From IMG/VR virus record IMGVR_UViG_3300031418_000005, positions 64,001-128,000 of that record: DNA of 64,000 nucleotides. One strand, written 5' to 3'. A model generated the notes under the pieces. That model was not told where the DNA came from, did not search any database, and was given only the letters and a program-made list of their open reading frames with translations. Positions 3,360 through 43,623 of the stretch are shown here, piece after piece (position 1 is the stretch's first letter; each line of letters starts with the position of its first letter). A program made the translations under genes and the position numbers. Source of the DNA: a virus.

Positions 3360-4209
3360 AATTCTCTTCCTCAGTCACGTTGTCATGACCGTAGATGGTT
3401 TTCAGGGCAGCCATCCCCTGTTCCAGAATTGGTAGCGTAGGGTAGCCATCGGTATTGAGCTTCTCTAAGTTCCCCGCGAGTGCCGCGTAGGCATCCTCGT
3501 ACGTATCCGCAGGAATCACCGACAGACCCACGCTGTACATCAGCAGCAGTTCATCTTCCGGGTATTCTTCTTCGTCAAACGTAAAGGATTGTTGCACCAC
3601 TTGCAGGTCAGGTTCCTGAGGCAGGTTCAAGAACACAAACGCTGACGGGTTCTGCGGGAATACGCGCAGGTAAGCCGCGATACGGCCGATACGCAGGTAA
3701 TCGTTATCGCCTTTTTGTTCGTCCAGCGCAGAAGCCGCCAGGTAGTTACGCATCACGGTCATTACCCGTGGGCCAACGCGAACAATCAGGTCTTCGAAGT
3801 GTAGGTTGTTGTCTCCGTACACCAGACGACACATGTTCTCGAGAATGAACTCCGGGGTTTCACCGGACATCACAATTCCGTAGAGACTGTCGCTGTCATC
3901 GAAGTCTTCGAAGGTTTCTAACAATCCGTGCAATATACGCACGGTCTCTTTCGGTTTTTGATACACGATTTGGGGATTCAAGGCCACGCCCAAACGGTTG
4001 CCTAAGGCGACAGCACATTTTACAATGATGCCTTCTAACCGGATGGTTTCATCGGCCGGGTCAGCAGACGGTTCGAAATACACGTCGCTTAAGGCCACAT
4101 CATAACCGTAATCAATACCGAGGGTAACTAAGTCTAGCATCGGCGCTGCCCGGTCTTCGTGGCGGTTGACCGTCAGGACGGCCGCGTAGTCGGTATAAAT
4201 GTCAATCAT
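3346..4209 (-). CDS. Conserved hypothetical protein
   Basis: Likely start MIDIYTD at 4209, because the longer ORF-finder start runs through a terminator. Overlaps the next gene's start. Confidence 0.6.
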   Translation of the reverse strand: MIDIYTDYAAVLTVNRHEDRAAPMLDLVTLGIDYGYDVALSDVYFEPSADPADETIRLEGIIVKCAVALGNRLGVALNPQIVYQKPKETVRILHGLLETFEDFDDSDSLYGIVMSGETPEFILENMCRLVYGDNNLHFEDLIVRVGPRVMTVMRNYLAASALDEQKGDNDYLRIGRIAAYLRVFPQNPSAFVFLNLPQEPDLQVVQQSFTFDEEEYPEDELLLMYSVGLSVIPADTYEDAYAALAGNLEKLNTDGYPTLPILEQGMAALKTIYGHDNVTEEENYEQD

Positions 4210-4246: not shown

Positions 4247-4282
4247 AAAAAAAGAAAAGAAAAAGGGGCCGAAGCCCCCTTA
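4247..4282 (-). terminator. Intrinsic terminator
   Basis: GGGGC-TTCG-GCCCC hairpin followed by a long T-tract on the minus strand. Confidence 0.8.
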
Positions 4283-4690
4283 GGTACGACCCTGCATTTC
4301 TTTTTCCAAACCACGCATCTCTTTGTTCTCATCGAGTTGCTGCTGAATATCTTTATTCAAGATAGCCATGCGGCGACGTACCGCTTCCAGCATGATCATA
4401 ATCTGCCAGCGCGGACGGTTGAGAAACTCATCGAACGAGAGACGGAAGTGTTCTCCAATTTGCTCACGTAAGTACGTGGCATACCAGATTTCATACAGAC
4501 TGCCCATTACCGGGTTTTCAAATTCCGACATCCCGATATGGCTTTCACCGGTATCCAGCCCCAGCGTCGCATCGTAGGCTTCCAACAGTTCGTTGTGGGC
4601 TTCTTGATACGTGATGGGGCGGGTACTGCGTTGTTTGAACAGTGAGGTGGTGTCTAGCTTGAGAGTCGTGATTATCTGGTCGGACGGCAC
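4280..4690 (-). CDS. Conserved hypothetical protein
   Basis: 136-aa ORF in an operon with the upstream gene. Confidence 0.6.
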   Translation of the reverse strand: MPSDQIITTLKLDTTSLFKQRSTRPITYQEAHNELLEAYDATLGLDTGESHIGMSEFENPVMGSLYEIWYATYLREQIGEHFRLSFDEFLNRPRWQIMIMLEAVRRRMAILNKDIQQQLDENKEMRGLEKEMQGRT

Positions 4691-4701
4691 TTCTTCGTGG
4701 T

Positions 4702-6819
4702 CTAGCCAGTAACGCCGTATTGTCTGAGCAGATACTTCTGAATCTCGGACACCACTCGAGAGAGCTCGAAAAAAACCCTGTCCGGTGAAATGGTAACGAT
4801 ACCACGGTACGGGCCTTCTTTCTCCCCGCCATGGTCACCACCACACTGGGAACATTTCTGTCCCATGTACCCGAACACAGCCAAACGAGAACGCTCGTTG
4901 TAGTTGGCGATAGCCGCTTCGAACTCAGCTACGTACAGACGGTCAGGTGATAACTCTTCGAGCATCTTGACAATCTTCGCGTAGTCGCGTTCGGTTTCCG
5001 TGGTCTGTACGGTTTCCCCGTCCACAGTGCGTTCTTCCACCACGGTGATGGATTCCACCAGGTGCGCATAACGGGTCAGACGACGCGTTTCTGCGGTAAG
5101 GCGCATGTGGTTCTCTTTCTCACGTTCCGTCCCGTTAGACGACAGCGCAGCCGTGGTAGAGGCATTGATGTCAGACATCCAGGTTTCGGTGTGGTCAAAG
5201 AAGTCACCCAGGGTGCAGCGACCGAAGGTTACGGTAACACCGTCACGTTCAAACACCGCAGACGGGTCTTTGAGGTGCTGGTTCACGAACTCGGCTTGTT
5301 GTGCCTGTGTGATGGTGTAGTCATCGACACCACGCTGATGTGCCCACAGGTTACGTTGCAGGTCAGTGTACAGGCTGGTACCCATGCGGATACAGCGTGC
5401 AATGTTCAGCTTCACATCTTGCTGATGCCCACAACCGTCGTGACCACAGACCAGCGTCCACGGCAGACCTGCTGGGAACTTCGCCTGAATCGGACCGAGA
5501 ATCACTAACCAGTAGTCAGCGATATCAATCTTATCCAGCAGCACGGTCTTCATGTCGTTGCCTTCACAGTCGAGCGTACACTCGGTCACAAAGCCCAGAG
5601 CGAACTCTACCATGTGGCGGATGTAGACACCCGAAGAAGAAGACAGCATCAGACCGTACGTCTGCATCCCGATGGTGGCCGTTTCCAGCGTCAACTGCAT
5701 ATCGAAATCGCAGAACTCACGCTCGTTCGGTGCACGGAAGCCCACGTAGATGCCGGTGGCCGGTAACCACACTGAGTTCGGGATACCGGTCTTACGGCGA
5801 CGACGCAGAGCCGCAATCGGGCCGCTGTGCATATTGTCGCGCGGTGAGATAAGACCCGCAGGCTTTTCAAAGCCCGGCAGACGAACACGTTGTTCCCATG
5901 GGGTGTCGTCACGCGACAGCGCCATATCGAAAGCCTGGGCTGTGTTGTGGAGCGTCGGTGGCGTCATGTTCAGCGCAGCATAAATCAGACTATAACGCTG
6001 TTGCTGTTCTTCGCTTTCAAACAGCAAACGCCCGTCATCCGGTGAACGCTTAACACTGGAGAAGAAACGTTGCAAGTCCTTACCAATCAGGTTCGGGTCT
6101 TGCATCGGGCCAACCAGACGACGCAGACCGGTTAGGATTGCATCACGATCGTCCTGCGGCAGCTCGGCCATTTCCGGCTGATACGGTTGATTACCGAAAT
6201 TCACCTCACGCTCGCTCTCGGTGGACTTCACCTGAGGGGCGGCGTTCTTCTCATGGTCAGGACGCACTTCCTGCTTTTCCGGCGCATGAGGGGTAAACGG
6301 TTTGGCATCTACCGGCTGCGTTTCTTTCTGCTCAGGCGCAGACTGGTGCACATGCTGATGAACTATCGTGGGTTCCGGTGAACGCGGTACAGGTTCAGGT
6401 GCGGCTTCGGGTTTCGGTTCCACGAAGATTGTGGTGTTCGACCCACCTGGCTGTGTGGCAAGTGCGGGCGGAAGCTCTTTTTCTTTAAGGGCATGAATCG
6501 GGTTGACCTCCTCGTGCCTCGCTGGCTGCGCAGAGGAAGGCGGTGCCGGGGGTTCTTCCTGCTGGAAGACCGGACGCTGCAACACCGGTTCTTCTACTTG
6601 CAGATGCAGAGCGTAGTGTTCTTGGTACACTTGCTCTGCGCGGGCAAAAGAAAAACCGGGGTTCGATTTCTTAATCAGGAACACCGCGTCTTCGCTATCC
6701 ATTTGTTGGATGCGTTCGGCAGGTGGCAGCACCAGCTCCTGGGTGTCTTGCGACACCTCAGGCTGGCTAGGGTTCGGACGGCGCGCGTTAGACGGGCGCT
6801 GATCTAGCGGTTCAGACAT
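4702..6819 (-). CDS. Conserved protein with Pro/Glu/Gln-rich disordered N-terminus and two Cys pairs (possible baseplate-hub assembly protein)
   Basis: Start MSEPLDQ overlaps the upstream stop. Contains CGHDGC and CSQC motifs and a ~230-aa low-complexity N-terminus. The function is inferred. Confidence 0.5.
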   Translation of the reverse strand: MSEPLDQRPSNARRPNPSQPEVSQDTQELVLPPAERIQQMDSEDAVFLIKKSNPGFSFARAEQVYQEHYALHLQVEEPVLQRPVFQQEEPPAPPSSAQPARHEEVNPIHALKEKELPPALATQPGGSNTTIFVEPKPEAAPEPVPRSPEPTIVHQHVHQSAPEQKETQPVDAKPFTPHAPEKQEVRPDHEKNAAPQVKSTESEREVNFGNQPYQPEMAELPQDDRDAILTGLRRLVGPMQDPNLIGKDLQRFFSSVKRSPDDGRLLFESEEQQQRYSLIYAALNMTPPTLHNTAQAFDMALSRDDTPWEQRVRLPGFEKPAGLISPRDNMHSGPIAALRRRRKTGIPNSVWLPATGIYVGFRAPNEREFCDFDMQLTLETATIGMQTYGLMLSSSSGVYIRHMVEFALGFVTECTLDCEGNDMKTVLLDKIDIADYWLVILGPIQAKFPAGLPWTLVCGHDGCGHQQDVKLNIARCIRMGTSLYTDLQRNLWAHQRGVDDYTITQAQQAEFVNQHLKDPSAVFERDGVTVTFGRCTLGDFFDHTETWMSDINASTTAALSSNGTEREKENHMRLTAETRRLTRYAHLVESITVVEERTVDGETVQTTETERDYAKIVKMLEELSPDRLYVAEFEAAIANYNERSRLAVFGYMGQKCSQCGGDHGGEKEGPYRGIVTISPDRVFFELSRVVSEIQKYLLRQYGVTG

Positions 6820-37591: not shown

Positions 37592-38563
37592 CTACAATAC
37601 GGTGTGCCAGTCTTCGGGAGTAAACATATCGAAGACGTCGTTTGGCATGGTTACACTGATAGTATTTTTCGGTGTGGTGTAACCGATTGGAAAGACCTGG
37701 TCGACTTGCGGTAAGTTCAAGCGCATGTACCCAGTTGGGTCAATGCTATCACCGAAGACGTGGTTATTGAGAATCAAGGAACGGTGGTACATCGTGTACG
37801 CTGGGAAGATATCCGGCGACGTCAGTACCGTTAACACATCAGAGCGCAGACGATTGAACTCATGACGGCTAATGATTTCTTTGTCCCGGCGCATAGCTTG
37901 CAAGTCGAGATAACGGGCAATGTCATAACCGTCTTGCATCGGGTTCACCCAGTGGGCTTTACGGTCGAAACGACTTCCGTGTAACGTCCGATGAATGCGT
38001 TCACCTGCCCGCCAGGCTGACAGAACTTCTTTCACGTTAAAGGTATCCGCCGGAGGCGGTACTTCTACCCTCTGCGTCATTATCCGACGGCCGGTTAATT
38101 GCTGGGCATCGTCTTGTGCACCCACGGCATCGAACAGGTCACGCAAGACACGGGTCTTGATACGCAACCCACCGTTGACGTAGGTCAAACGACGACCGAG
38201 ACCTTCACCGCCATGTTCCGTATACAGAGCCTGGCCAAAGTGGCGGATAAACTCTATTACGGTAAACTCGGCACTAAAGGTTGGTGACTCGTAGTGCATC
38301 TTCACATACGGGCTGGTTGGGATGTGATTCATTTCCTGGTCACGCCAGAAATAGAAACGGAACTTGTGGCGGTCGTACGTCAGGGCATCGGCTACCGCAC
38401 GGTACGCATTCCAGAACTCGTAGTTCGCACTCGGCAACGCTACGTAGTTATCAAAGTGCAAAGGCAGGAACGGACGAATCCGGGTGGCTTCTTCACGGCT
38501 GTAGTGGGCGGCTACTAAACCATCAATAGCAGAAGCAGCAGTAGGGCGGTAATTACGTGGCAT
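37592..38563 (-). CDS. Hypothetical early protein
   Basis: 323 aa with an AAGGAG SD and a conserved promoter/leader upstream. Confidence 0.6.
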   Translation of the reverse strand: MPRNYRPTAASAIDGLVAAHYSREEATRIRPFLPLHFDNYVALPSANYEFWNAYRAVADALTYDRHKFRFYFWRDQEMNHIPTSPYVKMHYESPTFSAEFTVIEFIRHFGQALYTEHGGEGLGRRLTYVNGGLRIKTRVLRDLFDAVGAQDDAQQLTGRRIMTQRVEVPPPADTFNVKEVLSAWRAGERIHRTLHGSRFDRKAHWVNPMQDGYDIARYLDLQAMRRDKEIISRHEFNRLRSDVLTVLTSPDIFPAYTMYHRSLILNNHVFGDSIDPTGYMRLNLPQVDQVFPIGYTTPKNTISVTMPNDVFDMFTPEDWHTVL

Positions 38564-38569
38564 GGTATA

Positions 38570-38661
38570 ACTCCTTTAAGGCTATAGTCGAATGGGTCGC
38601 TTGGAGATAAGGTTTTCTCATCTCGTATAGGTAAAATATATCTGTGATATTTTCGAATGCA
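38570..38661 (-). promoter_or_regulatory. Promoter/leader cassette, paralogous to 61905-61986
   Basis: TGCATTCGAAA-n5-ACAGATATATTTTAC, a hairpin, then TCGACTATARCCTTAA(A)GGAG. Confidence 0.65.
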
Positions 38662-38703
38662 AAAAAAATAAAAAAGAATACACCCACTCCGAAGAGTGGG
38701 TGC
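38661..38703 (-). terminator. Terminator closing the tRNA/ncRNA array
   Basis: CACCCACTC-TTCG-GAGTGGGTG followed by T-tracts. Confidence 0.8.
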
Positions 38704-38867
38704 TTCCCTGGTACTGGCATTGAAATTACAACAGGAGCGTCTTCCTGGGCAGAACGCGGGTCGCGTTCGGAAGACATTTAGCGCATCGGCATGGGCTAAT
38801 TGATTCCGGTTACATCCGCACCAACGCACCAGGCAGGGTTCACGGAAATGATGATGCAACCAGAAAG

Positions 38868-38931
38868 TGGTTCACCATCCCGTACCCCGAAACGCGTCTG
38901 GAGACTAACGTAAAGGATACGGAACAGCGAA
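38868..38931 (-). ncRNA. CCA-terminated long-stem RNA (tRNA-like)
   Basis: TTCGCTGTTCCGTATCC pairs with GGGTACGGGATGGTGAA (17 bp including G-U pairs), followed directly by CCA. Confidence 0.45.
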
Positions 38932-39005
38932 TGGTTTTTCGTGCTACCCCCGACCATGGATGGATTTGTCTTAGGAATGTCTCCGGGACAAGGGTAACAC
39001 AAAAG

Positions 39006-39081
39006 TGGCGACTCCGGCAGGACTCGAACCTGCGACGAGATAATTAACAGTCATCCGTTCTACCAACTGAACTACAGAGTC
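39006..39081 (-). tRNA. tRNA-Asn(GTT)
   Basis: Cloverleaf with loop CTGTTAA, TTCGA T-loop and encoded CCA. Confidence 0.95.
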
Positions 39082-39086
39082 ATAAA

Positions 39087-39165
39087 TCGCGAACACCGTA
39101 CTGGATTCGAACCAGTGAAAAATCCGATTATGGGTCGGGTGCTTTTTCCTCAAGCTAACGGGTTC
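39087..39165 (-). tRNA. Degenerate tRNA-Met/Ile2(CAT), possible pseudo-tRNA
   Basis: The T-arm CACTGG-TTCGAAT-CCAGT is intact and the anticodon loop is CCCATAA (C33). The acceptor stem is bulged and there is no CCA. Confidence 0.6.
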
Positions 39166-39171
39166 ATTGTA

Positions 39172-39247
39172 AGGTCAACGGTTATGGGATTCTAACCCAC
39201 CTGGTCTGTTCGCGAGCACAGTGCATCACAGTTTTGCTTACCGTCGA
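39172..39247 (-). ncRNA. Degenerate tRNA-like RNA (CGC-centred loop)
   Basis: 8-bp acceptor-like stem, short D-arm, CTGT/ACAG arm and a T-like arm GTGGG-TTAGAAT-CCCAT. Ends in ACCT. Confidence 0.5.
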
Positions 39248-39252
39248 TAAAA

Positions 39253-39373
39253 GGGAAGTCACCACCGGACTTGAACCGGTAACCGCACCACTACGCCACC
39301 GCCATTATTGCACCGCGGTGCGTGTTGGTCAGTATTGGTCGTAAGGTGTGCTCTAATCTTGAGCTAGGCGACT
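39253..39373 (-). ncRNA. tRNA-like RNA with a ~45-nt insertion in the anticodon arm
   Basis: Canonical acceptor (AGTCGCC/GGTGACT), D-arm (GCTC/GAGC) and T-arm (ACCGG-TTCAAGT-CCGGT). The anticodon loop is replaced by a long imperfect hairpin. Confidence 0.7.
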
Positions 39374-39380
39374 ATAGATT

Positions 39381-39470
39381 TGGCGGAGAATGAAGGATTC
39401 GAACCTTCGGGCAGCTTGCGCCACCACTCCCTTAGCAGGGGAGCTCTTTCGGCCACTCGGACAATTCTCC
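39381..39470 (-). tRNA. tRNA-Ser(GCT)
   Basis: Class II cloverleaf with loop CTGCTAA, G73 and CCA. Confidence 0.95.
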
Positions 39471-39475
39471 GGAAC

Positions 39476-39553
39476 TGGGGTGTATGGAGAGACTCGAACT
39501 CTCGACCACTGACGTCACAAGCCAGTATTCTAACCAGCTGAACTACATACACC
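39476..39553 (-). tRNA. tRNA-His(GTG)
   Basis: Loop TTGTGAC, G-1:C73 pair and CCA. Confidence 0.95.
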
Positions 39554-39559
39554 ACTAAA

Positions 39560-39640
39560 TGGGGGAACACCCAGGCTTCCACCCAGTCGAGTGGGGACGA
39601 ATCCATCACTCCTGTCATCACTGATGGTGACAATGTTCCC
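39560..39640 (-). ncRNA. CCA-terminated tRNA-like RNA without canonical T/D loops
   Basis: GGGAACA/TGTTCCC stem followed by CCA. Internal hairpins TGTCA/TGACA and CCACTC/GGGTGG. Confidence 0.55.
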
Positions 39641-39647
39641 ATAATGC

Positions 39648-39724
39648 TGGTTGTCTCGAGTAGACTTGAACTACCGACCTCCCGCTTATCAGGCGAGCGC
39701 TCTAACCAACTGAGCTACGAGACA
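39648..39724 (-). tRNA. tRNA-Ile(GAT)
   Basis: Loop CTGATAA, A73 and CCA. Confidence 0.95.
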
Positions 39725-39733
39725 ATTTAAAAA

Positions 39734-39810
39734 TGGCAGAACCGATGGGGCTCGAACCCACGATCTCCTCCGTGACAGGGAGGCGTCTTAACCAACTCGA
39801 CTACGGCTCT
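39734..39810 (-). tRNA. tRNA-Asp(GTC)
   Basis: Loop CTGTCAC, G73 and CCA. Confidence 0.95.
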
Positions 39811-39814
39811 ACAA

Positions 39815-39959
39815 TGGGTGACACTTCTCCGAATCCCACGGAGTTATACGGCTGCGCTTAGCGACCCTCTATCCGAGACCCTCAGGCCCAGTAGACGGTG
39901 GATGCTTTTATTGGCTGCCAGACCTCTAAGCTGCTCAAAGGCGGCGAGGGTCAGTGTCA
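39815..39959 (-). ncRNA. 145-nt CCA-terminated tRNA-like RNA
   Basis: TGACACT/AGTGTCA 7-bp acceptor followed by C-CCA. T-arm-shaped CTCCG-7nt-CGGAG and a large internal domain. Confidence 0.6.
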
Positions 39960-39964
39960 TTGTT

Positions 39965-40040
39965 TGGCGTTCCTGCGGAGAATTGAACTCCGGTTGCCTG
40001 GTTGAAAACCAGGTGTCCTGGACCACTAGACGACAGGAAC
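39965..40040 (-). tRNA. tRNA-Glu(TTC)
   Basis: Loop TTTTCAA, G73 and CCA. Confidence 0.93.
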
Positions 40041-40046
40041 AAATAT

Positions 40047-40132
40047 TGGTGGCGCGGGTTGGATTTGAACCAACGAAGGCCGAAGCCAACAGATTTACAG
40101 TCTGCCCCCTTTAACCGCTCGGGAACCTCGCC
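40047..40132 (-). tRNA. tRNA-Tyr(GTA)
   Basis: Class II, loop CTGTAAA, A73 and CCA. Confidence 0.95.
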
Positions 40133-40240
40133 AATACGTCTGAGAACTCAACTTCGAATTCGCACACGTCTTGGGTGTTTTACATATATTGGTGCAGTCT
40201 TGTAGCGAAATGGGGAAATCGCTATAAGTCGTTGATTTAT

Positions 40241-40316
40241 TGGAGCGAGTAATGAGATTCGAACTCACGACCCTCTGGTTGGGAACCAGATGCTCTACCA
40301 GCTGAGCTATACTCGC
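40241..40316 (-). tRNA. tRNA-Gly(CCC)
   Basis: Loop TTCCCAA, U73 and CCA. Confidence 0.93.
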
Positions 40317-40322
40317 ATTAAG

Positions 40323-40391
40323 TGGGGTTGATGGACTTCTTCTTCTGAGCCAGAGCAGGACTCCGGTCTTAGCGCCTCCAAGCACCAACCC
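40323..40391 (-). ncRNA. CCA-terminated small structured RNA
   Basis: GGTTGGTG/CATCAACC stem followed by CCA, ending 6 nt before tRNA-Gly. Confidence 0.45.
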
Positions 40392-40534
40392 TACTTACTT
40401 TCTTTTCGTGACGTACCGGCCGTATGAGGTACCGCGCCAACTGCAGCACACTGCTGCTCATTCACACTGGGAACTCAATCCCATCAGTTACATTCAGATT
40501 GTGGGGTGAAGGTTGCCTATGTCAGCGAGTCGGC

Positions 40535-40720
40535 TTAATGGGCCGGTGCTTGACCTTCGTCTACAATAGACGTCGCCTGGGTTGAGGACTCTCGTCCTAA
40601 AACAGGTTTATGGCGTTCAGTCCCACATCCTGATAACCAATAAGTATCGAGCTTCCAGAGCTTGAGGTCTTTCAACCAGGTACCCATACGGTACAGAAAC
40701 GCTCTGAACAACTCTTCCAT
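40535..40720 (-). CDS. Possible small protein (61 aa) within a structured region
   Basis: AGGTGA SD 6 nt before the ATG. The 3' half overlaps hairpins, so it may be non-coding. Confidence 0.3.
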   Translation of the reverse strand: MEELFRAFLYRMGTWLKDLKLWKLDTYWLSGCGTERHKPVLGRESSTQATSIVDEGQAPAH

Positions 40721-40730
40721 GTTTAGTCAC

Positions 40731-40869
40731 CTGATAAGTTCATAACGGCAGGATTGCCTACCCGCAGATAGTTCTTTGTGCAATCCGGTTAACGTGGACT
40801 TATTGGCGTGCCACGTTTCTTCACTTCATCCAACCCCAAAAGATGAAACCGTTCCAACAGGGATATCAG
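40731..40869 (-). ncRNA. Four-way-junction structured element
   Basis: CTGATA/TATCAG and AACGG/CCGTT stems enclose three perfect hairpins (TTCATC/GATGAA, AACGTGG/CCACGTT, GGATTGC/GCAATCC). Strand is assumed from context. Confidence 0.5.
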
Positions 40870-40894
40870 CCCCGTCAGTGCAATTAACACACAG

Positions 40895-41731
40895 CTATTG
40901 TTTGGCCGTCCCCATGATGCGTGGTGCATTTTTCAGGAGGATGGATGAAACGGCTTCCAGCAGATCGTCACCGGCATCGGTATTAGCGACTACCAGTGTT
41001 TTGGTGCAAGGGACTTTAACGTCACCACCGAACCACGCGCTGTTGTCAACTTTCGCGGACTTCTTCTCGTAGACCGCTTGCCCGTTAGGCAGTTTGTCGT
41101 TGACGTTCCAGTTGTTCATGTCGATGAGTTTCAGACCTGAACTCTCCTGGTTAACCGCTTCCAGAAACTTATTAGGTTTGCCCGGCGCACTTACCCACAT
41201 GAACGCGTCGTATTCACCCGTGGCCACTTTGGACAGAGAACGGATGCCGCCTTTCGCATAGGTTTCGGTTTTCGAATACTGCTTCACCAAACCTTGCAGG
41301 TATTGCCAACTGGCGTATGAGCCAGAGTCCGGTTCACCGACAGCAATCTTAATGCTGTCTTTGAGGTCAGCTTCATCACCGACCTTACCGTCTTTCTTCA
41401 CAGCCACGAAGACACACTCGTCACCCAACTGGCCAACGATGTCTACGTTCTGAGCTTCGTTCGGGTGCTGTGCGCGCCAGAACTGGAATGCGTCTGCCTG
41501 TGTAAAGCCGAGCTGCGCCGTACCGGCAGCCACTTTATCCAGGTTGTCCAGGGAACCTTTTGACGGTACCACTGTGGACTTGTTGCCGAACTCGTTCAGA
41601 GCACTGGCAAGATTAACGCCGTACGTGGCGTTGTACGTTAAACCCTGTTGACCGGTGGTAATGGTCACGTCCTGTCCTGCAAACGCGCTAAAGCTAATGG
41701 CTGCTACTAAACCGATTAGAAGCTTTCTCAT
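40895..41731 (-). CDS. TAXI-family (TRAP) periplasmic solute-binding protein
   Basis: Sec signal peptide (MRKLLIGLVAAISFSAFA) and TAXI motifs ITTGQQGLTY, SKGSLDNL, LGFTQAD and VGEPDSGS. Confidence 0.8.
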   Translation of the reverse strand: MRKLLIGLVAAISFSAFAGQDVTITTGQQGLTYNATYGVNLASALNEFGNKSTVVPSKGSLDNLDKVAAGTAQLGFTQADAFQFWRAQHPNEAQNVDIVGQLGDECVFVAVKKDGKVGDEADLKDSIKIAVGEPDSGSYASWQYLQGLVKQYSKTETYAKGGIRSLSKVATGEYDAFMWVSAPGKPNKFLEAVNQESSGLKLIDMNNWNVNDKLPNGQAVYEKKSAKVDNSAWFGGDVKVPCTKTLVVANTDAGDDLLEAVSSILLKNAPRIMGTAKQ

Positions 41732-41793
41732 GATTATACCTATTTTTAGATGAGAATTAGAGGAGGTGCGGGGGAACGACCCCGCACCATCAA

Positions 41794-41976
41794 TCAGACC
41801 TTCTTCGCCTTCGCTTTTGACTTAGCGGCAAAGGTTTTGATCACTGGCCATGCCAGGTAGGCTACTAAGCTGATTACAGCGACGTAGGCAATGAGCGTAA
41901 ACGCACGGCCTATGAAGTTGCCAAGCAGCATCAGCAGCAACGCGGCCGCGATGTATAACTTGGTTTTCAGCTTCAT
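41794..41976 (-). CDS. Small membrane protein (two hydrophobic segments)
   Basis: 60 aa with a hydrophobic core and basic termini. Confidence 0.65.
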   Translation of the reverse strand: MKLKTKLYIAAALLLMLLGNFIGRAFTLIAYVAVISLVAYLAWPVIKTFAAKSKAKAKKV

Positions 41977-41979
41977 GGC

Positions 41980-42408
41980 TTAGGCGTCGTAACGCAGACC
42001 CATCGCTTCGGCGATCTGTTTCAGCATCGCTTCTTCGGCAGGTTCGATTTCGCCATCCGCGCGCGCGATAGCAACAGCCACGTCCAGCACGTCTTCGGAC
42101 TCACGCTGGTCGCCTTTCACGTCAGCAATCTGACGAAGGGCAGCACGACGACCGATGTCGATGTCGGCTTCCAGCTGTGCAATGATCGTGGACGCGATAG
42201 CATTAAGTTCACTCTGGAAGTTAGAGAGAACCGGGTTCGCGCGCAGCACTTGTTCGATTTTCGCTTTCTCGGAAGACTCCAGCTCGCCGTCAGCATACGC
42301 AATCAGATACGCAGCATTTACCACAGCTTCGGCCAGGTCGCGTTTGTCGAACTTTTTGATTTCAGACATCGCACGAGAAGAACGTTTCTTTAAGAATCCA
42401 AACATCAC
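41980..42408 (-). CDS. terB: Tellurite-resistance TerB family protein
   Basis: Duplicated AYADGELESSE / ARADGEIEPAE motifs and an AAGGA SD. Confidence 0.85.
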   Translation of the reverse strand: MMFGFLKKRSSRAMSEIKKFDKRDLAEAVVNAAYLIAYADGELESSEKAKIEQVLRANPVLSNFQSELNAIASTIIAQLEADIDIGRRAALRQIADVKGDQRESEDVLDVAVAIARADGEIEPAEEAMLKQIAEAMGLRYDA

Positions 42409-42541
42409 TATTTTCCTTTAGGTGGGTGAGCCAGGGCTCAGGAGTGAAAGACCGTAGAGTAACAAGCACTCCATCTGGCAACACCCCCGAAAGGCTCTAC
42501 GGGTTTTCTATTTCAAAAGTAACACACCGAGCCAAGTGTGT

Positions 42542-42617
42542 TGGAGGGGCAAGCCGGACTTGAACCGACCTGATCCGAATTTGCAATTCGTCGCCTAACC
42601 ACTCGAGCCATTGCCCC
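42542..42617 (-). tRNA. tRNA-Cys(GCA)
   Basis: Loop TTGCAAA, U73 and CCA. The D-arm is slightly irregular. Confidence 0.88.
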
Positions 42618-42647
42618 AAGGTGTGGTGGGCCGAAGCCCACCGGTAT

Positions 42648-42872
42648 TCAGCCTGCGTTGAACGATTCGTGGACGACCCCTTCCGGTAAGTGCGTTGTGC
42701 CAATGTGTTTGCATCTCAGGATTACTCCGTCTTCGTTGCGAAACACATCAGTCCAGCGCCCATGGTTGGGCTTCGTTGCGCGCGCAGCTTGCTCCGTAGG
42801 AGCAGCAACGACTATGGAATCAAACTCGTCGTAACCGACATCGTCTTCACGTTCTAGCAAATACAAGTTCAT
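42648..42872 (-). CDS. Small conserved phage protein
   Basis: MNLYLL...GYDEFDSIVVAAPTE...SFNAG, a common small phage protein pattern. GGAG SD. Confidence 0.65.
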   Translation of the reverse strand: MNLYLLEREDDVGYDEFDSIVVAAPTEQAARATKPNHGRWTDVFRNEDGVILRCKHIGTTHLPEGVVHESFNAG

Positions 42873-42935
42873 GAGAATCTCCAGCGAATGGTCAATTGTC
42901 CTTTCGTGGTTTCTCACATTCTTGCTGGCTAAATT

Positions 42936-43011
42936 TGGCAGGGGAGACAGGACTCGAACCTGCAACATTCGGTTTTGGAGACCGACGCTCTACCAGTTGA
43001 ACTACTCCCCC
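42936..43011 (-). tRNA. tRNA-Trp(CCA)
   Basis: Loop CTCCAAA, G73 and CCA. Confidence 0.95.
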
Positions 43012-43022
43012 AGAATTCTTCA

Positions 43023-43117
43023 CTCAGGTGCCATGCGGATAGGTGGCGATTTCTTGCGTTGGCCAAACAGCGTCAACACCGTATCCCGCAGCCCTAGCTG
43101 TTTTGGTTCTTCCTGAG
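43023..43117. ncRNA. Pseudoknot-capable structured element
   Basis: CTCAGG/CCTGAG closing stem, internal GGATA/TATCC and GGTG/CACC stems, and AAACAGC/GCTGTTT cross-pairing. Confidence 0.4.
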
Positions 43118-43119
43118 GT

Positions 43120-43623
43120 TTATTTTGTTTTTGAGACATGACTAATCTCCCGAATCTCACCGCCAGTGTTCACATCGAACCGTGCCGCAATACTCACTGC
43201 GTCAGCAGCGGATGCACCTGCGGCCATCGCACCGATGGCGAACTCAGAACCACTACCCACCGCAATGGGTGCTGTGACTTTGGTTAGCCATGGCATCTCG
43301 TCGTTCTCGTATTGACCACCGGCGTAAACGTTACCACCCTCGGTAACGACCAGGTAGCTAATCACAATCCCTTTCGGGAACCGTGTGCTGCCGGTCAAGC
43401 CCTGGTAACCCTTCATGCAACTGGACAAGGCTTCACGCAGTGCGTTGTTCCCTTGCAGGCATCCGGCTACCCCGAACGATATCGCTCGCTCTCCGTTCAC
43501 CACCCAGGACTCACCTGGTTGCGGTGTAAAGATTTTCACAGCGTGCATCGACAGGCGGATATCGCCTTGGGTCGTTTGGGAATCACCCGCGAGGGTTTTC
43601 CCGTCGTAGGCGATTGTGGTCAT
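43120..43623 (-). CDS. HslV/proteasome-beta-like Ntn peptidase
   Basis: N-terminal MTTIAYDG...AGDSQ, K33-like VKI, GVAG, AVGSGS and DVNTGG motifs. Confidence 0.85.
   Translation of the reverse strand: MTTIAYDGKTLAGDSQTTQGDIRLSMHAVKIFTPQPGESWVVNGERAISFGVAGCLQGNNALREALSSCMKGYQGLTGSTRFPKGIVISYLVVTEGGNVYAGGQYENDEMPWLTKVTAPIAVGSGSEFAIGAMAAGASAADAVSIAARFDVNTGGEIREISHVSKTK

Follow-up and report, generated by a model that had tools for sequence, protein, structure and literature searches.

The window analysed here is a stretch of 64,000 nucleotides (nt), namely bases 64001-128000 of the virus record IMGVR_UViG_3300031418_000005, which belongs to a jumbo phage and is 246,337 base pairs (bp) long. All of the record's transfer RNA (tRNA) genes (11/11) lie inside the window, and every feature of the tRNA array is on the minus strand. 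On balance, we read the part of the array that runs from about position 40580 to an intrinsic terminator at 38665 as an RNA island, in which eight working tRNAs are accompanied by about ten further structured RNAs; the tRNA-derived ones among them would be excised by host tRNA enzymes, and their tRNA-like ends would be the part by which they act. From the sequence of the window alone, one could not tell whether these units are real, because their helices are only modestly unusual and their folding energies are mostly ordinary, but the comparison with relatives decides the matter. The units are folded, phages of four genera share them with base changes that compensate one another, and they are shuffled between phages in the manner of cassettes. 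They are therefore not decaying junk. An earlier interpretation of the interval 38739-40391, made without any database search (the sequence-only reading), had proposed tRNA-mimic RNAs between the tRNAs and had named decaying pseudogenes, lacking conservation and covariation, as the case against itself; the compensatory changes found in relatives across the four genera contradict that case.

Since the 1970s, two RNAs of the tRNA cluster of phage T4 have lacked an explanation, and with two examples only, little could be learned from comparing them. The clade described here supplies about ten such RNAs, several of them tRNA-derived, whose conservation over four genera comes with enough variation to define their structures. 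Because these RNAs are retained in phages that have nearly no tRNAs, and because cultured relatives exist (Stratton, phiEaH2, and SPN3US), the old question raised by T4 becomes testable. Antisense oligomers have already been applied to jumbo phages (PMC12571901).

Conserved units between the tRNA genes

Over positions 38600-40700, the window is about 86% identical, over 95% of the length, to the Erwinia phages vB_EamM_Stratton (Stratton below) and phiEaH2, both of the genus Erskinevirus. Parts of the same region also match other Erwinia and Salmonella jumbo phages, and there are 35 matching records in total. Our comparison set consisted of the syntenic region of 15 named phages together with IMG/VR and metagenome contigs. 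In the order of transcription, the units are U0b+U1, the Gly/Tyr gap, U2, U3, U4, U5, U6, T1, T2, T3, and the terminator (Table 1).

The eight canonical tRNAs expected in 38739-40391 (Asn, Ser, His, Ile, Asp, Glu, Tyr, and Gly) were found by both ARAGORN and Rfam at 48-71.5 bits, together with a weak Met(CAU). As the sequence-only reading had observed, the same kind of short spacer separates tRNAs and units: 13 spacers of 4-9 nt flank both alike, and 65 of their 82 nt (79%) are A or T, versus 48% for the region. An end-to-end helix of 7-9 bp is present in four of the five gaps tested, where 35, 27, 75, and 31 of 1000 shuffles equalled the observed value; the Gly/Tyr gap is the one without such a closing helix (205 of 1000 shuffles reach the best found). 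Among the claimed units, only U4 (39253-39373, -2.9) and T2 (38868-38931, -5.3) stand out in folding z. The interiors of the units proved to be mutually unrelated, as had been thought (no unit matched another at E<=1e-4), and tRNA finders do overlook most of them, since default ARAGORN and the Rfam tRNA model pick up the weak Met alone. The tRNA gathering cut-off of 29 bits is reached by U6 only, and U1-U5 give no tRNA match in the window at E<=10. In other words, the scores on the tRNA model are graded: 48-76 bits for tRNAs, 33.7 for U6, 24.1 for a homologue of U5, and nothing for U2 and U3. An Rfam search, which had been suggested as a check, matched no family to any unit, either at gathering thresholds or at E<=10, in the window and in phage SNUABM_29; it returned only tRNA and sub-threshold noise.

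U2, U3, U4, U5, and U6 derive from tRNAs or share the tRNA shape, with the anticodon arm lost or replaced. In all five, the closing helix is stacked on a T arm or a T-like hairpin. An end of the tRNA type, in which a T arm accompanies the closing helix or the 3' terminus is of the CCA kind, is found in U2-U6 and is absent from U1, T1, and T2. A 5-bp anticodon stem with a 7-nt U33 loop occurs in none of the five: position 33 of U6 is a C, the stem of U5 has 4 bp and its loop 8 nt, a long hairpin takes the place of this arm in U4, and U2 and U3 have no such arm. The aberrant cloverleaves that had been noticed in U4, U5, and U6 were all confirmed by folds and by ARAGORN.

U2 is built from a 7-bp acceptor-like helix, two long arms, a linker of 6-7 nt, a T-like arm, one extra base, and the 3' strand of the acceptor. 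Its T-like arm, CTCCG-TGNNATT-CGGAG, is invariant, and its 3' end consists of a discriminator C followed by C(C/T)(A/T), so that the tails of the 11 distinct homologues read CCA (5), CCT (3), or CTA (3). Across these 11 sequences, aligned as A4, 90.4% of the cells are paired, with 15 double-change cells, and 0 of 500 shuffles scored as high. The genome has one copy of U2, and its covariance model, R1, found no match in SPN3US, Caitlin, ChrisDB, Proteus phage 7, or T4. Two alternative pairing partners that had been suggested for GACCCTC in U2 do not occur in Stratton or phiEaH2.

U3 is a four-way junction whose hairpins are capped by UCAG, UUCG, and GGAA. In five sequences, 99.2% of 130 cells are paired and five pairs show compensatory change; the closing helix keeps 8/8 pairs in all five, and CCA follows immediately in four of them. 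A hallmark of tRNA-His is an extra 5' G (G-1) paired with C73, and C73 is special to tRNA-His in Escherichia coli, these being identity elements of histidyl-tRNA synthetase (HisRS). As far as the sequence tells, the end of U3 has this same layout, with an extra 5' G paired with a C73-like base, an 8-bp helix, and then CCA; the window's own tRNA-His has a matching end. U5 has a 3-bp D stem, a 4-bp anticodon-type stem with an 8-nt loop, and the T loop TTAGAAT, and ends in A-CC-N. In four sequences, 100% of 76 cells are paired, three pairs being compensatory, and its identity in Wellington, Kwan, SNUABM_6, and SNUABM_29 is 93-98.6%. The SNUABM_29 copy is the homologue that reaches 24.1 bits on the tRNA model, and ARAGORN detects U5 at a relaxed threshold only. 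In both U3 and U5, nearly all change falls in stems and the loops are invariant.

U4 combines a textbook acceptor, a D arm, and a canonical T arm (TTCAAGT) with a long irregular hairpin in place of the anticodon loop, and it ends in T-CCC. Its 97.5% identity to Stratton places it with the best-conserved units of the array. Only when a 35-nt "intron" is allowed does ARAGORN report it, as tRNA-Ile(aat), and the Stratton annotation lists its counterpart as a tRNA-Ile(aat) of 120 nt. U6 has C rather than U at position 33, a bulged acceptor, and no CCA. Its counterpart in Stratton, only 62% identical, carries a normal CTCATAA loop.

The sequence-only reading had seen four units that end in an acceptor-like helix followed by an encoded CCA. 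The letters do stand in the window at all four sites, but in relatives they are not conserved across the set, and the combination of helix and CCA held for 39815-39959 (U2) and 39560-39640 (U3) but not for the other two. At 40323-40391, two C's belong to the covarying 10-bp stem of U1, and CCA occurs in 0 of 12 other sequences; at 38868-38931, the "CCA/CCC" that lies 3' of T2 is used in the closing helix of T3, where the CCC of relatives pairs with GGG at the end of the larger domain. For comparison, 105 of 109 ARAGORN tRNAs across 15 loci of the clade have an encoded CCA, and three of the four calls that lack it are aberrant units of this same kind. Among the units, the CCA is encoded in 5/11 copies of U2, in 4/5 of U3, and in none of U4, U5, and U6. 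All copies of U2 share the discriminator and the C after it (11/11), and A-CC is kept in U5 (4/4). Because the mimics retain these letters, trimming followed by completion through the host CCA-adding enzyme would be possible. The observation itself holds and extends beyond what had been claimed, but the proposed chassis of acceptor stem plus CCA stands in part only: conserved and covarying RNAs do occupy tRNA slots, five of them with a closing helix on a T or T-like hairpin, but the CCA is not a conserved feature.

We propose that U1 with the part upstream of it, T1, and T2/T3 are conserved non-tRNA RNAs that belong to one transcript with the tRNAs. In 14 sequences, U0b+U1 has 40 consensus pairs, 13 of them with compensatory change, and at least five covarying helices; no Rfam model matched it at E<=10. 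In its terminal stem-loop, U1, 97.4% of cells are paired over 13 sequences, with 29 double-change cells and 0 of 500 shuffles as high, versus 36-55% paired with slid partners. T1 (nine sequences) has five pairs with compensatory change. The stem of T2 contains seven G.U pairs, so that it folds only as a minus-strand transcript, and changes in Stratton, phiEaH2, and one metagenomic variant preserve all 18 bp. T2 and T3 together form a domain of about 230 nt at the 3' end of the array, and the stem of the terminator that follows shows a compensatory change in Stratton.

Table 1. Features of the tRNA array in transcript order (all on the minus strand). The last column gives the number of the first 13 named loci with a copy, as counted by blastn, or by motif scan for U2.
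Feature	Position	Description	Named loci with a copy
U0b+U1	40324..40580	conserved structured RNA of ~250 nt; starts within the 3' end of a 61-amino-acid open reading frame	
U1	40324..40392	terminal stem-loop of the ~250-nt RNA; stem of 10 bp with invariant internal loops; lacks a CCA tail	12/13
tRNA-Gly(CCC)	40241..40316	ARAGORN; Rfam 71.5 bits	
Gly/Tyr gap	40133..40240	two hairpins, no closing helix; z -3.02; 90.8% identity to Stratton	
tRNA-Tyr(GTA)	40047..40132	ARAGORN, Rfam	
tRNA-Glu(TTC)	39965..40040	ARAGORN, Rfam	
U2	39815..39959	expanded cloverleaf; covariance model R1 and alignment A4, constrained folds	9/13
tRNA-Asp(GTC)	39734..39810	ARAGORN, Rfam	
tRNA-Ile(GAT)	39648..39724	ARAGORN, Rfam	
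U3	39560..39640	four-way junction; 8-bp closing helix directly into CCA	3/13
tRNA-His(GTG), including G-1	39476..39553	ARAGORN, Rfam, sequence	
tRNA-Ser(GCT)	39381..39470	ARAGORN, Rfam	
U4	39253..39373	tRNA frame; z -2.91; 97.5% identity to Stratton	2/13
U5	39173..39246	degenerate cloverleaf; alignment of 4 sequences	2/13
U6	39091..39164	aberrant, tRNA-Met/Ile2-like (CAT); 33.7 bits vs cut-off 29	11/13 (U6-like)
tRNA-Asn(GTT)	39006..39081	ARAGORN, Rfam	
T1	38941..39000	stem-loop; covarying closing stem of 9-13 bp, then RGAACC(A/C/T)	10/13
T2	38871..38931	18-bp hairpin; z -5.29	
T3	38704..38870	multi-hairpin 3' domain; 89.6% identity to Stratton	
Intrinsic terminator	38665..38703	10-bp stem with 6 G-C pairs, then T run	

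Distribution and cassette behaviour

The units are common to phages of four genera, Erskinevirus, Wellingtonvirus, Machinavirus, and Seoulvirus. U3 is found in 28 records of the phage collection (80-91% identity across genera), U5 in six, and U4 in three; almost no copy is annotated, and none of U3. In most public records, the intervals are blank or carry the label "tRNA-Ile(aat)" or "hypothetical protein". One to three annotated tRNAs each are all that SPN3US, Proteus phage 7, and SPLA1a have, yet these phages retain U0/U1, T1, and a U6-like unit, and the latter two also retain U3.

The position of the units in the array differs from phage to phage, as is the case for T1, and their identity to Stratton forms a mosaic, from tRNA-His (100%) and U4 (97.5%) through tRNA-Asn (70%) down to outright replacement. 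Thus, the slot of U3 is occupied in Stratton by a normal tRNA-Met and that of U5 by a different tRNA-like unit. In contigs of close relatives, U5 is missing exactly (39170 joined to 39252), or U3 is missing together with tRNA-Ile (39557 joined to 39732). These exact joins indicate that U5, and U3 with tRNA-Ile, come and go as complete cassettes.

Motif scans reached further. The T-arm motif of U2 matched 12 loci in IMG/VR, of which four (L014, L017, L023, and L025) have unrelated sequence and are due to chance, and the core of U1 matched 19 metagenome loci, of which seven were taken as chance because blastn found no similarity to U0/U1. Among 185,579 species genomes of bacteria and archaea, the U1 core had no match, and the U3 motif had three, which were taken as chance because their flanks are unlike. 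The U3 motif scan of IMG/VR gave no match.

Proposed processing, possible roles and competing readings

RNase P and the 3' trimming enzymes read the acceptor helix and T-arm part of a tRNA, which forms the minimal substrate of RNase P. We infer that the units are transcribed together with the tRNAs, that tRNA enzymes excise them, and that they are stable. A long precursor would first be cut within the A/T-rich spacers. Host RNase P would then trim the 5' ends and host exonucleases the 3' ends, and the host CCA-adding enzyme would supply any last letters that are missing, as happens with some T4 tRNAs. Finally, each unit would be freed as a stable small RNA, as the species 1 and 2 RNAs of T4 are. 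One paper states both that RNase P cleaves non-tRNA substrates as well and that the CCA of some T4 tRNAs has to be added (PMC11143913).

What the released RNAs might do is a matter of speculation. They may bind, perhaps as decoys, proteins that recognise tRNA by its acceptor/T-arm end, without taking part in decoding; the G-1:C73-like end of U3, for instance, would suit HisRS or another factor that reads tRNA-His. There are toxins whose target is the acceptor end of tRNA, which they modify or cut. The roles offered by the sequence-only reading, namely decoys for nucleases, sponges for synthetases or EF-Tu, and mimics of uncharged tRNA, gained no support from the analysis. A decoy for anticodon nucleases is unlikely in the case of some units, because these have no anticodon loop. 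In its boldest form, the proposal would be that SPN3US-like jumbo phages keep at least six undescribed RNA families, cut by tRNA enzymes, as acceptor-end mimics that soak up or misdirect host factors, and this we regard as doubtful. If it were true, the factors targeted would be acceptor-end toxins, synthetases (with U3 as a mimic of the tRNA-His end), and CCA-adding or repair enzymes, and RNA C and RNA D of T4 would be explained in the same way.

Judging by sequence, the layout of the array is one known from rnaC and rnaD of T4, with apparently unrelated sequences and with more numerous designs in the present phage. rnaC (139 nt) and rnaD (119 nt) lie on the same strand as tRNA-Arg in the tRNA cluster, 1-6 nt behind it, and the units described here are likewise non-tRNA RNA genes in a tRNA cluster, on the same strand and with spacers of 4-9 nt. 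rnaC has a canonical T arm beside its closing helix within a multi-arm junction fold, U2-U6 being similarly tRNA-like at their ends, and rnaD ends in ...CACC with A as the next letter. Unlike in T4, the units number about ten instead of two and follow at least six designs unrelated to one another, they are interleaved with the tRNAs instead of appended to them, and they occur in a jumbo, SPN3US-like lineage. The model of U2, the single unit compared in this way, gave no match in the T4 locus at E<=1. One paper describes rnaC and rnaD (the species 1 and 2 RNAs), seen by northern blot, as "RNAs of yet unknown functions" (PMC9697503).

Other systems resemble the units in part. Canonical tRNA (RF00005) has the same cloverleaf topology, acceptor helix, T arm, and operon slot, and U6 passes its model; the units differ from it in having no 7-nt U33 anticodon loop and no conserved encoded CCA, and U2, U3, and U4 do not match it at E<=10. 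Transfer-messenger RNA (tmRNA) and YrlA (RF02553) likewise join an acceptor/T-arm mimic to a non-tRNA body, although the ends of YrlA form the Ro-binding stem and not an acceptor mimic. In the array, ARAGORN found no tmRNA at default settings, and its two permuted calls at a relaxed threshold each span several tRNAs. YrlA scores were 19-22 bits, and 19.5-21.8 in the window, against a cut-off of 69 and fell on real tRNAs. The tRNA-miRNA (microRNA) units of herpesviruses are tRNA-like processing handles. PMC11143913 describes tmRNA as processed by RNase P, the C4 antisense RNA of phages P1/P7 and the phage M3 RNA as non-tRNA substrates of that enzyme, and a tRNA-like fold, as in the mascRNA of MALAT1, as what lets tRNA enzymes release another RNA from such elements. 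The Rfam model of mascRNA gave weak matches here, at 27.5-29.5 bits. C4, M3, mascRNA, and the herpesvirus units are single elements with known products, whereas here the tRNA-like fold is itself the product and no cargo RNA is attached. For phage phiKZ, a differential RNA sequencing study mentions a single predicted small RNA of 75 nt, which a northern blot did not confirm (PMC8244752). We found no paper on these RNAs in SPN3US-like or Erwinia jumbo phages, in a search that was thin on subscription journals and supplements.

Weak hints of expression come from two wastewater RNA libraries, which contain short contigs identical to the window at 38721-38937 and in parts of U2. One whole contig of 217 nt equals 38721-38937 without differences and has a depth of 16.5, versus 5.6 for the other identical contig of the run, a weak hint that T2/T3 accumulates as RNA.

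Several points weigh against the view that the units are excised and act as tRNA-like RNAs. All four sequencing runs compared with the window consist of contigs, without readable ends, strand, or abundance, and the RNA libraries among them may hold DNA. Nothing follows from the stretches that these runs leave uncovered, such as most of 40446-40658 in three of them, and 39168-39238. The 246-kb genome of the phage has no match for a CCA-adding enzyme (PolyA_pol), RtcB, or Ro60 (TROVE). The folding z of U1, U2, U3, U5, and U6 is ordinary (-0.75 to -1.7). Since the CCA is kept in only 5/11 copies of U2 and is absent from U4, U5, and U6, the mimics escape a constraint that the tRNAs obey, and in U2 and U5 an extra nucleotide separates the T stem from the acceptor strand. 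The comparative evidence also has its biases. The structures came from the window's own fold and were therefore favoured in the slid-partner controls; alignment A4 was fitted to model R1, which favours the structure of U2; the T-like arm of U2 offers no covariation evidence because it never varies; the alignments of U3 and U5 are small, with five and four related sequences; and U4 has three near-identical homologues only, so that its predicted inner fold lacks comparative support.

The units might instead act in cis, as structured spacers or end-caps that order cleavage by RNase E and RNase P, shield the tRNAs from exonucleases, or punctuate transcription, and have no life after processing. 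U1, T1, and T2/T3, which have no tRNA features, do lie at either end of the array, T2/T3 is directly upstream of the terminator, and several units lack a conserved CCA. We nevertheless think a purely cis role unlikely: the units survive in phages that have hardly any tRNAs to process, the modules occupy differing positions in the array, and their loops and internal loops are invariant over four genera, which a mere spacer or clamp would not need.

It is less probable still that some units are unusual working tRNAs, namely U6 a Met/Ile2 tRNA, U4 a tRNA-Ile(AAU) with a removable insert, and U5 a tRNA whose 8-nt anticodon loop reads unusual codons. U6 does exceed the Rfam tRNA cut-off (33.7 versus 29) and has a Stratton counterpart with a normal CTCATAA loop, the T arms of U4 and U5 are good, and both the Stratton annotation and intron-tolerant ARAGORN call U4 tRNA-Ile(aat). 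However, U4, U5, and U6 all lack the CCA that 105/109 tRNAs of the clade have, U6 of the window combines C33 with a bulged acceptor, and U5, with its 4-bp stem and 8-nt loop, appears only at the relaxed ARAGORN threshold. The insert of U4 is 35 nt long according to ARAGORN, no intron family matched in 38300-43300 at E<=10, and we know of no bacterial mechanism that removes an insert of 35-48 nt.

Decay of tRNA genes into pseudogenes amid neutral junk could account for the graded loss of tRNA score, for the 62% identity of U6 to its Stratton copy, and for the gain and loss of units among close relatives. Unlike tRNA pseudogenes, however, the units are conserved by compensatory change, which keeps the pairing in every unit with enough homologues; U5 is 93-98.6% and U3 80-91% identical across genera, and the stable tetraloops UUCG and GGAA cap hairpins. 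We consider decay very improbable overall and largely refuted for U1, U2, U3, U5, and T1. That the intervals encode small proteins is hardly credible, for although minus-strand reading frames of 81-114 amino acids overlap the island, parts of which are annotated as hypothetical proteins in Stratton, Huxley, and Wellington, these frames pass through tRNA genes and the terminator, none of five has a PHROGs family or a Pfam match above cut-off (0/5 each), the stems hold G.U pairs, the compensatory changes alter codons, and only a frame of 61 amino acids, upstream of 38739-40391, looks like a gene.

Neighbouring features and annotation

The frame in question (40535-40720, minus strand) encodes a protein conserved in Stratton, Wellington, and SNUABM_11, and weakly in Machina-type phages. 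At its end, the RNA structure seems to override the protein, because the compensatory changes of the overlapping hairpin alter amino acids. Jumbo phages of Erwinia, Salmonella, and Proteus share the RNA of about 250 nt that begins there (40324-40580). At least three alternative forms of its central domain occur, and the window has that of SPN3US and not that of Stratton. The two hairpins of the Gly/Tyr gap are invariant, with conservation limited to Stratton and phiEaH2, and the gap might be an internal promoter or a processing site.

Two likely slips were seen in the Stratton annotation: the coding sequence gp19 (locus 3416-3757) is drawn across the T3 RNA domain and the terminator, and gp12 (locus 4603-4682) is labelled tRNA-His(gtg), where ARAGORN gives tRNA-Asp(gtc). 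In Erwinia phage pEa_SNUABM_29 (SNUABM_29 above), further tRNA-like units are present at locus 4255-4323 and 4654-4717, scoring 29.5 bits for mascRNA and 19.1 bits for tRNA-Sec, each below the cut-off of its model. Finally, a 97-nt "tRNA-Ile(aat)" is annotated in Machina (locus 4765-4861) and Huxley (locus 4768-4864); this further non-canonical unit lacks CCA, its first acceptor pair is a mismatch and its variable arm is long, and it can be aligned to U4 only in the tRNA frame.

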